Part shown: positions 12,510 to 48,135 of the stretch, piece after piece
Layout: the number at the start of each line of letters is the position of its first letter
How positions within the stretch are numbered: position 1 is the first letter of the stretch
Source: Candidatus Uhrbacteria bacterium
Lineage (GTDB): Bacteria; Patescibacteriota; Patescibacteriia; UBA9934; UBA10169
Assembly (NCBI GenBank): GCA_016187485.1
Contig: JACPJO010000004.1
Coordinates: 1 to 54,305, forward strand
Length of the DNA stretch: 54,305 nt
Direction of reading: 5' to 3'
The notes under the pieces: model-generated
The model's input: only the letters and a program-made list of their open reading frames with translations
Databases searched by the model: none
Told to the model about the DNA's origin: nothing
Made by a program: the position numbers and the translations under genes

Positions 12510-12534
12510 TCGAAAACCAGCCGTGCGGCTGGTT
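12510..12534 (-). terminator. Rho-independent terminator of the GC-rich orphan gene
   Basis: On the minus strand: AACCAGCC-GCAC-GGCTGGTT followed by TTTCGA. The stem is 12515-12534. Confidence 0.55.
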
Positions 12535-12551
12535 GAGATAAGGAACGTGTT

Positions 12552-13748
12552 CTAGATATGTTGGGCAGCCAGGCGAAGAGCGGCATGCAGGTCCTTGATC
12601 CGACGGACGCGGCACGCGCGTGCAGCATCTTCCATACACCCGACAAGACCGGGGATGGTGCTGCGCCGACGCAAGGCCTTCCGCTCCCACCACAGACCGC
12701 GCGCCCACTGACGTGCGTCGTGAACTCCGTGGCGCAACTCCGCCCACGGGATGCACGCGTCGGGCAGACGCCGCACCTCGATCGTACCCACCAGCGTGCG
12801 CAGAGACGCCAGCTGCATGAGCCCGAAGTGCTGGATCGAGATGCCAACAACCTGCGCCTGATACCGCGCCACCAGCTCCTTGGGCGGCCGAGGATCCTGG
12901 CTCGACTCGGCCAGACCGATCATCTCCTGCAGATCGCGGGCCATGTGTTGCGTCAGGTGTTCAACCGGGCGCGGGTACACGGCCAGCAGATCCCGAGACG
13001 CCGCATCCATCTGCTCGTAGAGCGACCGCAGGGTTTCGCTGTCACCCCAGTGGCGAGACAGAAGCGTCATCCAGTCGTTCACCTGGCGACGCAGAGCGTC
13101 CAGGAAGCCGAGCAGCGCGTGGCGCTTGGCGAGCAGGACGGCCCGCCGGGGATCGAGCCACTCGTGCACGGCTTCGATCTCTTCCCGGCGCACGCCCAGG
13201 TGCTCGGCCGAAGCCGAGAGCCGCGCCAGGTTGGCACTCCAGTTGCGCCGCTCCGTCCGATCATGAGCAAAGACCGCATCCCCCATGAGCTCGCGCGCAC
13301 GCGCAGCACGCGGACCCTGCACAGCCCGCAGAAGGTCGAGAAGTCCGGCGACGCGCTTGGCGTAGACGGCATCTCGCTCCCGCCGGGCGCTCTCGGCAAG
13401 AAGGGCGTCGCTCCAGAACAGGGCAAGCTCGGAGAGGCCGAACTCGATGGTGGGCATCTCCACGTTGTCCATCTTGGCTTCCACGCGGTTGCACATCTCG
13501 ATGGCCTCGGGCAGACCGCGGCAGCAGACGAACATCTGCCGCCGGTCATCCCAGACCATGACCGCACCACGCCAGATGAACTTCTTGAGCGCCGGGCTGG
13601 GCCGGCCGCGCGCCTCCCTGAACGCCGACGACTCGTAGCGCTCGGTGGACAGGAAGACGCCTGGCATCCAATGGATAGCACGGAGATCGTGGACTCCCGC
13701 CCGCGACTTGATGCTGGAAAGAACCGTCTCATAACTTGGATCCGACAT
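12552..13748 (-). CDS. Hypothetical protein (398 aa), strongly GC-rich orphan
   Basis: A long ORF preceded by GGAGATAGAG. I recognised no motif. The competing + strand ORF 12558..13826 is Arg/Pro/His-rich, typical of an antisense shadow. Confidence 0.7.
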   Translation of the reverse strand: MSDPSYETVLSSIKSRAGVHDLRAIHWMPGVFLSTERYESSAFREARGRPSPALKKFIWRGAVMVWDDRRQMFVCCRGLPEAIEMCNRVEAKMDNVEMPTIEFGLSELALFWSDALLAESARRERDAVYAKRVAGLLDLLRAVQGPRAARARELMGDAVFAHDRTERRNWSANLARLSASAEHLGVRREEIEAVHEWLDPRRAVLLAKRHALLGFLDALRRQVNDWMTLLSRHWGDSETLRSLYEQMDAASRDLLAVYPRPVEHLTQHMARDLQEMIGLAESSQDPRPPKELVARYQAQVVGISIQHFGLMQLASLRTLVGTIEVRRLPDACIPWAELRHGVHDARQWARGLWWERKALRRRSTIPGLVGCMEDAARACRVRRIKDLHAALRLAAQHI

Positions 13749-13808
13749 GACTCTATCTCCAGGGTTGGCGGCAGAAGGATACTGGTTCTGCCTCTAAAGT
13801 TCAAACCA

Positions 13809-13840
13809 GTAAACCAAACACCATAGGCTGTTTGGTTTAC
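13809..13840 (-). terminator. Hairpin overlapping the mltG stop codon
   Basis: GTAAACCAAACA (13809-13820) pairs perfectly with TGTTTGGTTTAC (13829-13840) around an 8-nt loop. Confidence 0.5.
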
Positions 13841-14772
13841 CTCAAATACCTTGCCTTGTTCACGTTGTGCTCCTCAAGCGTTTTTGCGTAATACACCTTT
13901 CCCTCTGCATCGGTGAGAAAAAAGAAATAGGGGTTGGCTGCTGGCTCGAGAGCGGCACGGATCGCATCAAGGCCCGGATTAGAGATTGGGCCAGGTGGGA
14001 GGCCGCGATATTTGTACGTATTGTATGGGGAGTCTATATCGCGATCCGCATAGCTGATTGATGGCGTATCTTTTCCCGTCACGTAGTTAACCGTGGAGTC
14101 CGCTTGAAGCGCCATGCCAATATCGAGCCGCCGCCAGAATAGATCGGCCACCAGACGGCGATCTTCGGGTGAGCGAACTTCTTGTTCAAGGATAGATGCC
14201 ATCGTAAGGATTTCATGCGTCGTGCGGCCGGACGCTTCAAGTGCCGGCGCAAGCTCTTCCAATTTTTCATCCATCTCCCGCCGCAGGCGCTTCACCATGT
14301 CTTCTGGAATGACTCCTTTAAGAAAACGATACGTGTCGGGAAAGAGATATCCCTCGAGATCGCGTGTCGCAACAGCGTCCCAGGCAGCGCGCGTCGTCAC
14401 CCCTTCTGCTTCAAGATAATCTCCCATTTTCGCGAGCGTCCATCCTTCGGGAAATGTAAGGGTAAGTTCTGTGGCTGTAGGGTCCGTCATGCGCCGGAGC
14501 ACGTCGTGCGTGCTCATGCCAGACTTGAGTGAAAACGCCCCGGGCTGTAAACGTCCCTCGACACGAAGAAGCTTTGCGTAGACTTTAAACAGGAATGGAC
14601 TCTCAATGATGTCCTCATCTTTAAGAAGCTCTGCAATGAAACTCACGCCTGATCCTTGCTCCACCATCACCGTTTTTTCCACGGCATCCGCGGCCGGGTC
14701 GCGAAGCCACAACTCGCGGATCACAAGCCAGCCGAAAAAGACAACAAGAAGAAGAGCAATAAGACGTTTCAT
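13837..14772 (-). CDS. mltG: Endolytic murein transglycosylase MltG (YceG-like)
   Basis: An N-terminal TM segment plus YceG-type motifs (LTMASILEQE, STVNYV, YNTYKYRGLPPGPISNPG, YFFFLTD). Confidence 0.85.
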   Translation of the reverse strand: MKRLIALLLVVFFGWLVIRELWLRDPAADAVEKTVMVEQGSGVSFIAELLKDEDIIESPFLFKVYAKLLRVEGRLQPGAFSLKSGMSTHDVLRRMTDPTATELTLTFPEGWTLAKMGDYLEAEGVTTRAAWDAVATRDLEGYLFPDTYRFLKGVIPEDMVKRLRREMDEKLEELAPALEASGRTTHEILTMASILEQEVRSPEDRRLVADLFWRRLDIGMALQADSTVNYVTGKDTPSISYADRDIDSPYNTYKYRGLPPGPISNPGLDAIRAALEPAANPYFFFLTDAEGKVYYAKTLEEHNVNKARYLR

Positions 14773-46396: not shown

Positions 46397-46422
46397 ATTT
46401 CTTCAAGTATAACACTTTTCCC

Positions 46423-47142
46423 CTACCGCAGAGGGGAAAAGTTGATGGCGCTCATGTTCACAAACTCTTGGCAGGAAGGAACTGTTGCCGCCGAAGCGGT
46501 ATCAAAAGAGAAGACCGCAACAAGAAGAGTAAGAGAGAGGATCGTCACAAGCAGTCGTCCCACGTGGAAATGCCACGAAAGAGACGCTCCATCAAAAATT
46601 ACGGAAAGTCGCCGCGAGGAAAAGGCAAACAGCGGGCTTGCGTTCGCTGTCTCGGGAGCAAGAAGGTAGAGACTCTGAAGAACCGAGGCGTCTGTTGCGT
46701 GTATGGCCGCATGGTCGGCGCGGACTTCCTGGCGCAGGCGGATGTGCTCCGCAATGTCGGAAAGCGTAGGGAAAAAGAACAGCCACCGCTCAAAGAAAAG
46801 GAGAAGGCTCCGCCAGAGTCCATCACGGTATGTTTTGTGAGACGCCTCGTGCGCAAGAAGCGCGTGAAGTTGTTTCGGGGAAAGATACGCGGCTTTTTCG
46901 CGGGAGAGGACAATGGTAGGCCAAAACAAACCAACAGTGCGCGCCAGGGGGTCATTCGCGTCTCTGGACCAGCAAAAAGAGACGCCAAATGCTTCCTCAG
47001 ACAAGAGCGCGCGCGTGCGCCAAAAGTTCCGGATGTGCATACCCATCACCGCTACCCCACCGAGAAGTCCCCACCAAAGAAGTCCGCTCAAGAAAAGTCC
47101 CGTAGCAGAAATGGATAGGGCGATCATGCACGCTTCGATCAT
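46423..47142 (-). CDS. M56/BlaR1-like membrane metalloprotease
   Basis: TM segments plus LLAHEASHKTYRD (HExxH). It overlaps the upstream BlaI-like gene by 4 nt. Confidence 0.8.
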   Translation of the reverse strand: MIEACMIALSISATGLFLSGLLWWGLLGGVAVMGMHIRNFWRTRALLSEEAFGVSFCWSRDANDPLARTVGLFWPTIVLSREKAAYLSPKQLHALLAHEASHKTYRDGLWRSLLLFFERWLFFFPTLSDIAEHIRLRQEVRADHAAIHATDASVLQSLYLLAPETANASPLFAFSSRRLSVIFDGASLSWHFHVGRLLVTILSLTLLVAVFSFDTASAATVPSCQEFVNMSAINFSPLR

Positions 47143-47543
47143 ACACGATGCTTTAACAAGTGTTTGCGCAACTCTTTTCGGTCGGAAGGAGAAAGATGAT
47201 CGAGAGCGTCAAGAAAATGCGGCATAGCAAGGGGTGAGTGCTTCCCCACGAAGAGACGGACGAGAAGATTCGCTACGCCAGAGAGAAACTCTTCTTTCGC
47301 CTTGACGGGCTCGAACCACGTGGTGTGCCCACGTTTCTTTTTGCGTACGATCCCCTTCGCGCACAAGCGGTTTAATACCGTCATGATGGTGTTAAACGAA
47401 TAGGCACGATGAGACGAAAGCGCACGCTTCACACAGGTAATGGAGCATGGTCCCTCCTGCCATAGGTGGTCCATGATTTTCGCTTCCAGTTCCCCGAAAA
47501 ATGTTTGGAGGCCTTTTGCTTGAATATTGAGACGCGAGAGCAC
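47139..47543 (-). CDS. BlaI/MecI/CopY-family transcriptional repressor
   Basis: GELEAKIMDHLWQEGPCSITCVKRAL...SFNTIMTVLNRLCAKGIVRKKKRGHTTWFEPV is a winged-helix penicillinase-repressor fold pattern. The start is uncertain; GTG at 47543 was chosen, and the listed ORF extends to 47750 into GC-rich DNA. Confidence 0.7.
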   Translation of the reverse strand: MLSRLNIQAKGLQTFFGELEAKIMDHLWQEGPCSITCVKRALSSHRAYSFNTIMTVLNRLCAKGIVRKKKRGHTTWFEPVKAKEEFLSGVANLLVRLFVGKHSPLAMPHFLDALDHLSPSDRKELRKHLLKHRV

Positions 47544-47631
47544 ACGTGAAAGTTTTATTGACGGAAAAAGGTTTTCTTTGTATTCTCCTGCCTGTCGCTT
47601 TGGGAAACGGCCCAGAGCGATGTTCACCTGA

Positions 47632-48040
47632 AAGATCCTGGAGGATCTCTTGGACCAGTTCGGTAGCAGGTACGGCAGCCCCGGAAGCGGAACGCGCGTC
47701 ATCCCCTCCGGCCCCACGGGTCGCCCCACGGCCCACACGAACGAGATCACCCGGCCCGCGCCGTCGCAGACGCCACTGACCGAGACCTACAACATCGGTC
47801 GCTACCTCGACCAGACCGGGAAGCAGGCTGGCTCGAGAACGAGCAACCCGGGCGGGATCACTGGCCGTGCCCTCACGCTCTACTGCCAGGGCTTCCTGAA
47901 CGGGCACCCCCACGCGCTCGAACCTGGACGATTCCACGTCACCGTGGACGCTCACGTTCACGCTCGACGAGATCCGCAACGCGGTGGAACGTCACGACGA
48001 GCAGCGACGCCGTGAGCGCGAGGCTGCTATCACGGCCTAG
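47632..48040 (+). pseudogene. GC-rich frameshifted gene remnant
   Basis: One frame reads ...TETYNIGRYLDQTGKQAGSRTSNPGGITGRALTLYCQGFLNGHPHALEP and then turns Arg-rich. The +1 frame from ~47900 reads LDDSTSPWTLTFTLDEIRNAVERHDEQRRREREAAITA*, ending at TAG 48038-48040. A hairpin CCAGG...CCTGGTTTTCGATT follows at ~48071-48095. Confidence 0.4.
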
Positions 48041-48135
48041 GCCGTAGAGCAACGTTCCTTCCTTTCCTACCAGGCCCTGCGCCTGGTTTTCGATTAGAGC
48101 CCCTCGCGCCTTGCGACGTGGCAATTCTCCTGTTC

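Follow-up and report, generated by a model that had tools for sequence, protein, structure and literature searches.

The first 54,305 bases of contig JACPJO010000004.1 (255,752 bases) of a Candidatus Uhrbacteria genome, hereafter the window, carry seven GC-rich open reading frames (ORFs), designated P1–P5, c41 and c47, which lie scattered among genes of ordinary composition. The genome (G000; its contigs are cited below as C1, C3, C4, C6 and C7) comprises 878,746 bases over seven contigs, with a GC content of 54.5%. The sources of close homologs of its phosphoglycerate mutase assign them to Candidatus Uhrbacteria or to Patescibacteria. The GC-rich patches are real, they are correctly assembled, and their ORFs belong to a class of genes that is found on every large contig of the genome. 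We lean slightly towards the view that these cassettes are resident, fast-evolving accessory genes, GC-rich through a process specific to their class. This view draws on the persistence of P1 and of its GC excess in one intergenic slot of three relatives, on the codon usage of the class, which follows that of its own genome, and on the absence of any donor in the databases and samples searched.

Composition, borders and assembly of the cassettes

All five conspicuously GC-rich patches that an earlier sequence-only reading of the window had described were found exactly where it had placed them, and they resolve into seven ORFs with a GC content of 0.64–0.70 and a GC content at third codon positions (GC3) of 0.77–0.95. 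ORF starts were trimmed to the ATG preceded by a Shine–Dalgarno (SD) sequence. The backbone set, 680 ORFs of at least 100 amino acids, has a GC3 of 0.573 ± 0.061 (99th percentile 0.715) and a GC content of 0.536 ± 0.036; in the GC3 comparison that the same reading had proposed, the cassettes fall outside this distribution, with z = 3.2–6.1. Their positions, composition and predicted products are as follows.

P1, 12552–13748, minus strand: GC 0.66, GC3 0.79; ORF of 398 amino acids, mostly helical, without signal peptide, between YceG and UvrD
P2, 19987–21570, minus strand: GC 0.66, GC3 0.88; lipoprotein of 527 amino acids, lipobox LSAC, acidic D-rich repeats and a beta-rich C-terminal domain
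P3, 22027–22794, minus strand: GC 0.70, GC3 0.95; lipoprotein of 255 amino acids, lipobox LTGC and an acidic linker; ORFan
P4, 23084–24496, minus strand: GC 0.70, GC3 0.93; secreted protein of 470 amino acids with signal peptide, Ala/Pro-rich linker, coiled coil and beta-rich C-terminus; ORFan
c41, 41345–41593, plus strand: GC 0.66, GC3 0.81; basic protein of 82 amino acids with a C-terminal Cys4 (zinc-ribbon-like) motif
P5, 42918–43460, minus strand: GC 0.64, GC3 0.90; secreted protein of 180 amino acids with signal peptide
c47, 47650–48015, plus strand: GC 0.68, GC3 0.77; GC-rich ORF of 121 codons and odd composition (GC2 0.62), which retains an SD sequence and a full 3' module; probably a decayed remnant

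The cassettes are scattered, and all seven patches are bounded by ORFs, as had been claimed: the GC excess is greatest at silent sites and largely ends with the ORF. A strong GGAG ribosome-binding site stands ahead of every cassette start, in agreement with the GGAGG-type sites noted before, and a hairpin follows every stop, which supports the description of the cassettes as dispersed, autonomous units of promoter, ORF and terminator. The spacers around them, said to be AT-rich, have for the most part GC contents of 0.45–0.51 (intergenic baseline 0.51), but the P3–P4 spacer (289 nt) reaches 0.64 and two short 3' untranslated regions 0.58–0.60. P3 and P4 form one two-gene block. The flanking genes are of housekeeping type and encode YceG, UvrD, iPGM, an MFS transporter and a BlaI/BlaR1-like pair. 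In this pair, at 46423–47750 on the minus strand, a BlaR1-like M56 peptidase accompanies a repressor of the BlaI/MecI type (PF03965), and its transcription is divergent from that of the c47 remnant.

P2–P5 start with signal peptides, and the lipoboxes are clear in P2 and P3. P2 carries four MopE-type motifs, the repeated 30-residue Cys/Asp motif of Cu-binding_MopE (PF11617), which by profile comparison it matches at E = 3.9e-26 and 91.4 bits, well beyond the gathering score of Pfam (27). Apart from these motifs, searches of Pfam, PHROGs and PADLOC gave no match for the cassettes, and for P1 none in any of the three, beyond weak coiled-coil matches of P4 in the PHROG (two matches) and PADLOC searches. 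The AlphaFold2 models of P1 and P4 (predicted local distance difference test 41 and 48) did not reach the quality that a fold search needs, and the coiled coil of P4, at about residues 150–263, was the sole confident part of its model. The proteins may have a role at the cell surface or in interactions with other cells.

For the verification of the assembly, four runs from four different groundwater samples were used, all of which contain one strain. Of the sampled words of the 19.0–25.5 kb stretch, 98% were present in them. Contigs built independently from the four samples cross every junction and contain 11500–19582, 21662–26000 and 40694–48600 each in a single piece, with 0–2 differences from the window and even depth over cassettes and backbone (for example 35.5–37.6 in X1 and 11.3 in X2). 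Contigs break only in a multi-copy element at about 19.56–19.70 kb and within the acidic repeats of P2. An assembly or binning chimera, for which nothing speaks except the composition jump itself, is refuted by these single contigs, and its probability is practically nil; the position of the window in a far longer contig also counts against it.

Two minor observations concern the same contigs. In all four samples they differ from the window by a CG inserted behind 22024, just beyond the P3 stop, and by A→C at 22080 and C→G at 22084, both within the P3 ORF, which are likely small consensus errors or variants of the deposited assembly. The multi-copy element (about 19560–19700) lies at the 5' end or leader of an ORF of 581 amino acids (17914–19659); in each of the four samples its summed contig depth is 2–3 times that of the neighbouring sequence, and positions 19660–19698 are where many contigs diverge. 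Paralogs of the encoded protein, with 576–599 amino acids, lie at the same place in relatives.

The GC-rich class in this genome and its relatives

The class set comprises 70 GC-rich ORFs of at least 100 amino acids, which account for 8.5% of the genome. They do not constitute a single paralog family, relatedness being confined to the MopE proteins and one further pair. Relatives were compared within the order (150 further genomes, 151 including this one), and two genomes were fetched whole, G007 (another family; complete, 1.0 Mb, GC 45%) and the Uhrbacterium G009 (GC 62%). In G007, where the backbone GC3 is 0.42, 84 ORFs reach a GC of at least 0.53 and a GC3 of at least 0.60, and ORF-sized GC-rich patches were also seen when stretches of about 20 kb round iPGM were inspected in other genomes of the order. 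Homologs in G007 were found for 10 of the 70 class genes against 434 of the 680 backbone genes (p = 5e-16); as judged from sequence comparison, the class is strongly lineage-specific. Five of the ten G007 partners are GC-rich too (GC3 0.74–0.89, 95th percentile 0.49).

Homologs of P1 with 380–407 amino acids occupy the same slot between YceG and UvrD in L298, L015 and G017, and the GC3 values of the slot gene and of its flanks, together with the identity of iPGM to that of this genome, are listed below.

This genome: slot gene 0.79; YceG 0.55, iPGM 0.59
L298: slot gene 0.74; YceG 0.50, iPGM 0.40; iPGM identity 70%
L015: slot gene 0.79; YceG 0.52, iPGM 0.50; iPGM identity 74%
G017: slot gene 0.62; YceG 0.45, iPGM 0.39; iPGM identity 59%

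The slot genes of these three relatives exceed their own flanks (0.39–0.52) by 17–34 GC3 points. Identity between the P1-slot genes is 27–35%, against 43–67% for YceG, and since silent sites must have turned over many times at this divergence, the GC excess would be an equilibrium in each lineage and not a relic. Syntenic orthologs of like composition, which the sequence-only reading had named as the mark of native genes, therefore exist for P1, with the same relative excess in the same slot. For P2 this holds in part: the repeat family is GC-rich across the order and its domain occurs in 117 of the 151 genomes, though not at a shared site. MopE-repeat genes were GC-rich wherever examined, with 0.61–0.68 in G007 (backbone 0.45), 0.66 here (backbone 0.545) and 0.71–0.73 in G009 (backbone 0.62), so that their GC content rises with that of the backbone.

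The choice between C and G at four-fold sites, which is independent of overall GC, was compared over eight codon families. The class agrees with its own backbone (r = 0.79), as opposed to the G007 class (r = 0.25) and to three sets of high-GC loci from outside the candidate phyla radiation (CPR) (r = -0.14 to 0.15); likewise, the G007 class agrees with the G007 backbone (r about 0.76, calculated by hand from the same numbers). The class prefers CTC over CTG and ACG over ACC, like the backbone, whereas the sampled non-CPR loci do not. Such a shared dialect points to genes that have long been resident, or else to donors closely related to the respective recipient.

GC1, GC2 and the amino-acid composition of the class are shifted as well (FYMINK residues 17% against 22%), and at all three codon positions its composition is typical of a genome with 65–70% GC. 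A comparison of codon positions in the manner of amelioration analyses was indecisive, because GC1 and GC2 of the class are shifted too. The composition and the amino-acid shift are the points in favour of recent, repeated transfer of single genes from a high-GC, non-CPR organism, which might be the host of an episymbiont, the origin that the sequence-only reading had proposed. MopE-type motifs are also common in some high-GC phyla, which counts for it too. Against such a donor, no homolog outside Patescibacteria was found for any cassette tested, the only homologs being in Uhrbacteria; the MopE-repeat domain is widespread in the order itself; the leucine and threonine codons are chosen as in the backbone; and P1 has orthologs in the same slot of three relatives. 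G009, with its 62% GC, was also rejected as a donor: it has homologs of 10 of the 70 class genes at 26–36% identity, the same as the 45% GC genome, and is no closer to the class. Transfer from outside the CPR is thereby largely refuted, and we regard it as very improbable.

Most telling as regards a donor is a GC-rich gene outside the window, which encodes a second tryptophanyl-tRNA synthetase (TrpRS; GC3 0.91) and has its nearest relatives (47–52% identity) in low-GC Patescibacteria, where the gene has a GC3 of 0.20–0.44; its closest high-GC relative is only 37–38% identical.

Translational selection was rejected as the cause of the bias. The 40 most conserved genes have a GC3 of 0.59 and an NNC fraction of 0.49, and EF-Tu among them has 0.62 and 0.63, respectively. 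A related explanation is a codon-biased regulon, in which GC3 would be selected for a tRNA subset (NNC, NNG) or for mRNA stability under some condition, and in which the 3' module and operators described in the next section would mark the regulon. The concentration of the excess at silent sites, its end at ORF ends, the codon use of the class (NNC 0.78–0.91, NNG 0.73–0.89) and the shared module and palindromic operators are all compatible with it. Conserved, presumably highly expressed genes lack such a bias, however, the first two codon positions and the amino acids are shifted as well, and both the non-coding P3–P4 spacer and the decayed c47 are GC-rich, for which reasons we consider a regulon improbable.

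According to the preferred reading, that of resident genes under a class-specific process, each cassette is an independent unit in which a predicted sigma-70-type promoter and a short leader precede a strong GGAG ribosome-binding site and the ORF, while a CU-rich tract and a terminator hairpin follow it; most cassette ORFs encode predicted lipoproteins or secreted proteins. On this reading, class genes are lineage-restricted, evolve at the protein level about twice as fast as their neighbours, and are gained and lost at particular intergenic slots, the surviving orthologs staying at least 10 GC points above whatever backbone surrounds them. The GC excess would then be no inherited donor signature and would be maintained in place. 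GC-biased repair or gene conversion at often-recombining loci is the preferred candidate force, with selection that acts on the coding sequence or on its mRNA in second place. In a wider and much more speculative form, the data could indicate that Uhrbacteria have a continuing GC-enriching process directed at one gene class (conversion or repair hot spots, or targeted diversification), which would hold GC3 at 0.8–0.95 in genomes of 45–62% GC beyond the saturation of silent sites, the class being marked here by a regulatory or turnover 3' module.

The 3' module and a possible mobile source

A 3' module peculiar to the class in this genome consists of CGTTCCTTCTTTC, a hairpin and TTTCGA (UUUCGA in RNA). 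Eighteen copies could be aligned: CGTTCCTTCTTY is followed after about 8 nt by a GC stem of 6–8 bp and of varying sequence, and then by TTTCGA; the short form is CGTTCCTT-hairpin-TTTCGA. In the 80 nt downstream of the stop, 17 of the 70 class genes have the motif GTTCCTT, as against 1 of the 680 backbone genes (p = 7e-18); when only genes with a downstream gap of at least 70 nt are counted, the figures are 15 of 55 and 0 of 313. TTTCGA follows 26% of the class and 3% of the backbone. The spacing from motif to hairpin is conserved, and genome-wide the combination occurs essentially only where the 600 nt upstream are GC-rich, mostly with at least 0.60. The module is complete after P1, P3 and c47, and variants of it follow P2, P4, P5 and c41. 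To judge from its hairpin and U-rich tail, the module looks like an intrinsic terminator. The simple hairpin terminators which had been described as like those of backbone genes belong in fact to this class-specific module.

Regarding promoters, the TTGACA/TATAAT-like boxes claimed earlier were no more frequent than in shuffled sequence when 12–25.5 kb was scanned with the consensus (3 sites, 3.8 expected), but over the genome TTGACA boxes lie upstream of 10 of the 70 class genes against 10 of the 680 backbone genes, and strong SD sequences are enriched as well. The regulatory and spacer elements around the cassettes are the following.

12490–12551, minus strand: 3' module of P1, CGTTCCTTATCTC, hairpin CCAGCCGCACGGCTGG, then TTTTCGA; fold -14.3 kcal/mol, z -2.3, aligning with 17 other copies in the genome
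13749–13836, minus strand: YceG–P1 spacer, 88 nt, GC 0.48, with the YceG terminator hairpin, the promoter-like TTGAAC-17-TATCCT and the SD sequence CTGGAGA of P1
21571–22026, minus strand: P3–P2 spacer, GC 0.48, with the CU-rich tract and terminator of P3
21651–21667: palindrome ACAACACGGAGTGTTGT in the P3–P2 spacer
21746–21718, minus strand: promoter-like site of P2, TTGACA-17-TAAATT, a consensus match
22795–23083, minus strand: P4–P3 spacer with two strong hairpins, a CU-rich tract and terminator-like sites; fold -55.7 kcal/mol, z -5.8
24795–24823, minus strand: promoter-like site of P4, TTGACA-17-TAAATT with a TG extension and the same hexamers as P2; consensus match only
After 41593, plus strand: 3' end of c41, hairpin CCCGCCCACGGCGGG, then ATTTCGA
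About 48050–48095, plus strand: full 3' module of c47

Some leaders and two palindromic operator-like elements are common to class genes with unrelated ORFs. About 58 nt of the upstream region of P2 are 98% identical to the region upstream of a GC-rich gene at C3:98246. The two stretches belong to a conserved element, at 21620–21740 and at C3:98766–98870, that contains the palindrome ACAACAC-N3-GTGTTGT upstream of these two unrelated GC-rich genes; this palindrome is present at 7 loci and a second one, TTCTCTCTTAGnGATCnCTAAGAGAGAA, at 8 loci in the genome. Additionally, the leader of P5 (43461–43560; CTGAACGTGGGTATAaTG...AAACCGGACATACGGAGGAA) is common, with 87% identity over 53 nt, to the GC-rich gene C4:79769–80776, which encodes a protein of 335 amino acids without similarity to P5.

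The search for a source gave little. In a collection of 5.8 billion proteins P1 and P4 matched nothing but themselves; with a full HMMER search, 1.84 billion representative proteins yielded a total of four members of the P1 family. Within the 150 genomes of the order no credible homolog was found for P3, P4 and c41; P5 has two homologs (30% and 23% identity) in two genomes of one other family, and for the one in G035 synteny is not conserved. P3, P4, P5, c41 and c47 may represent lineage-specific gains from an unsampled source. No vehicle or donor appeared in either protein collection or in the same four samples. A scan of viral and metagenome contigs for hairpin-TTTCGA was discarded, the pattern being too generic (139 matches, 0 with the full module). 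No Pfam integrase domain was detected in the window ORFs scanned, which were all but a few, and no direct repeats were noted at the cassette borders, for which no systematic search was made. The tRNA (40667–40740) and tmRNA (29452–29842) genes adjoin no cassette. The cassettes thus have the composition of recently transferred genes, and in these searches they showed neither closer homologs in a donor nor signs of mobility at their borders.

Several findings weigh against long residence. G001, the sole genome of the same family (f1) compared, and L014 have no gene in the P1 slot, and 7 of the 17 slots syntenic with G007 are empty there; many class members are therefore lineage-specific gains. 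In L013 the P1 slot holds an unrelated AT-rich gene, so that loss and replacement also occur. The overall excess of slot persistence in the comparison with G007, 35% against 18%, does not reach significance (p = 0.11), and class genes are found at synteny breaks more often than controls (p = 0.017). The two P5 homologs show little GC excess, the dialect comparison has only eight points, a small sample, and the class contains, in the manner of mobile pools, an integrase and additional diverged copies of housekeeping genes. The module pattern gave 14 matches in this genome (5 for the reversed control) and 0–8 in the others, being enriched in no other genome of the order. Its presence after 17 of the 70 class genes, against 1 of the 680 backbone genes, looks like the mark of a common source or common vehicle.

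The serious rival is accordingly a private mobile gene pool, namely an unsampled GC-rich plasmid, phage, integrative and conjugative element or sister clade within this Uhrbacteria lineage, from which cassettes would enter with their own promoter and terminator, slots being refilled by recombination in the conserved flanks. The class specificity of the 3' module and its conserved spacing, the leaders and operators common to unrelated ORFs, the empty slots and the enrichment at synteny breaks, the extra paralogs of TrpRS, PilB and M17 peptidase together with the integrase, and clusters of GC-rich genes such as that at C1:25–45 kb all speak for it. A survey of groundwater Patescibacteria reports horizontal gene transfer (HGT) over up to 13% of genome length, mostly between Patescibacteria (PMC12455944), and the 8.5% share of the class falls within this range; in its text as searched, GC content is mentioned twice and Uhrbacteria not at all. 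On the other hand, neither vehicle nor donor was found, the module is enriched in none of the 150 other genomes, no integrase or flanking repeat was recorded within the limits given above, the class has the codon dialect of its own genome and not that of the G007 class, the GC content of slot genes and MopE genes rises with the backbone instead of being constant, and the P1 slot series persists. We consider such a pool possible, though on the whole not likely.

Further observations on the class concern copies, slots and secretion. GC-rich extra copies of four genes, encoding TrpRS (C1:32651–33694), M17 aminopeptidase (C1:7525–8988), a PilB/GspE-type ATPase (C7:38722–40437) and a tyrosine recombinase (C3:142090–142908), are each 30–37% identical to the G007 homolog, and the normal-GC copies elsewhere in the genome 53–63%. 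In two syntenic slots, C6:6032–9915 against G007 93774–99288 (787 and 807 amino acids) and C7:27886–31242 against G007 362673–365464 (398 and 401 amino acids), both genomes have GC-rich ORFs of near-equal length without detectable sequence similarity (z below 1). A class-wide enrichment in secretion was unsupported by a crude test of N-terminal hydrophobicity (29% against 29%); lipobox-like sites were present in 5 of the 70 class and 1 of the 680 backbone genes.

Relation to known systems and other features of the window

Compositionally atypical genes or islets are explained in the framework of Lawrence and Ochman by horizontal transfer and subsequent amelioration. Like HGT islets, the cassettes have sharp borders of atypical GC, are patchy among relatives and are enriched at synteny breaks. 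They differ in being GC-rich and not AT-rich relative to the genome and in the lack of a donor; moreover, the GC excess of the orthologs persists in one and the same slot in different families of the order, at saturated silent sites, which is the opposite of amelioration.

Phage morons are autonomous promoter–ORF–terminator units of deviant composition within prophages. The cassettes had been called moron-like, and the likeness stands as regards single-gene units with what appear to be their own promoter and terminator (SD sequence, hairpin, TTGACA enrichment) and a composition unlike that of their neighbours; it fails as regards the setting, since they are not in a prophage, have housekeeping flanks, give no meaningful PHROG matches and are spread throughout the chromosome.

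GC-biased gene conversion can bring particular genes to a higher GC3 without foreign origin. The effect that Lassalle et al. reportedly described for bacteria in 2015 amounts to a few GC3 points, and the excess here, 20–35 points and largely ending at ORF ends, is far bigger. Two gene classes per genome, split mainly by third-position GC, are also found in grasses; these are eukaryotes and the similarity is one of resemblance only. We know of no bacterial counterpart of the bimodal GC3 classes of grasses, and no published description of a GC-rich gene class of the present kind was found.

The 3' module resembles palindromes of the REP (repetitive extragenic palindromic) type and integron attC sites in that a short motif and a variable hairpin stand just after the stops of unrelated genes. 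GTTCCTT does not fit GTTRRRY, and there is thus no R''/R' core in the module; moreover, unlike integron cassettes, the present ones are dispersed and not arrayed, and the window has no IntI integrase.

Atypical base composition is a standard cue for HGT and, in host-associated CPR bacteria, also for guesses about the host. Here this cue is misleading: some 8% of a very small genome has a foreign, GC-rich look without a donor, and at least part of it is old and has kept its place. A class-specific force, if it exists, would bear on the old question why the GC content of bacteria stays above a mutational equilibrium that is AT-biased, and would offer a natural contrast within one genome between biased gene conversion and selection. 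Many of the lipoproteins and secreted proteins peculiar to the lineage belong to the class and could plausibly serve in contacts with a host or a partner, and the 3' module of the class could help to spot class members in this lineage.

Other features of the window are unrelated to the cassettes. An ORF of 1,969 amino acids at 33782–39691 on the minus strand, which lies in an AT-rich stretch at about 33.6–40.4 kb, is an outlier of the opposite kind (GC 0.44, GC3 0.41, z about -2.7). Two small low-GC genes are situated at 25048–25425 and 28996–29310, both on the minus strand, with GC contents of 0.43 and 0.42; one of them encodes a 23S-rRNA-intervening-sequence or bAvd-like four-helix protein (PF05635, E = 3e-36) and the other a free-standing GIY-YIG nuclease, which adjoins the tmRNA gene. 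Finally, an open-ended ORF of more than 2,256 amino acids and normal composition (2–6769, minus strand) runs off the start of the window.

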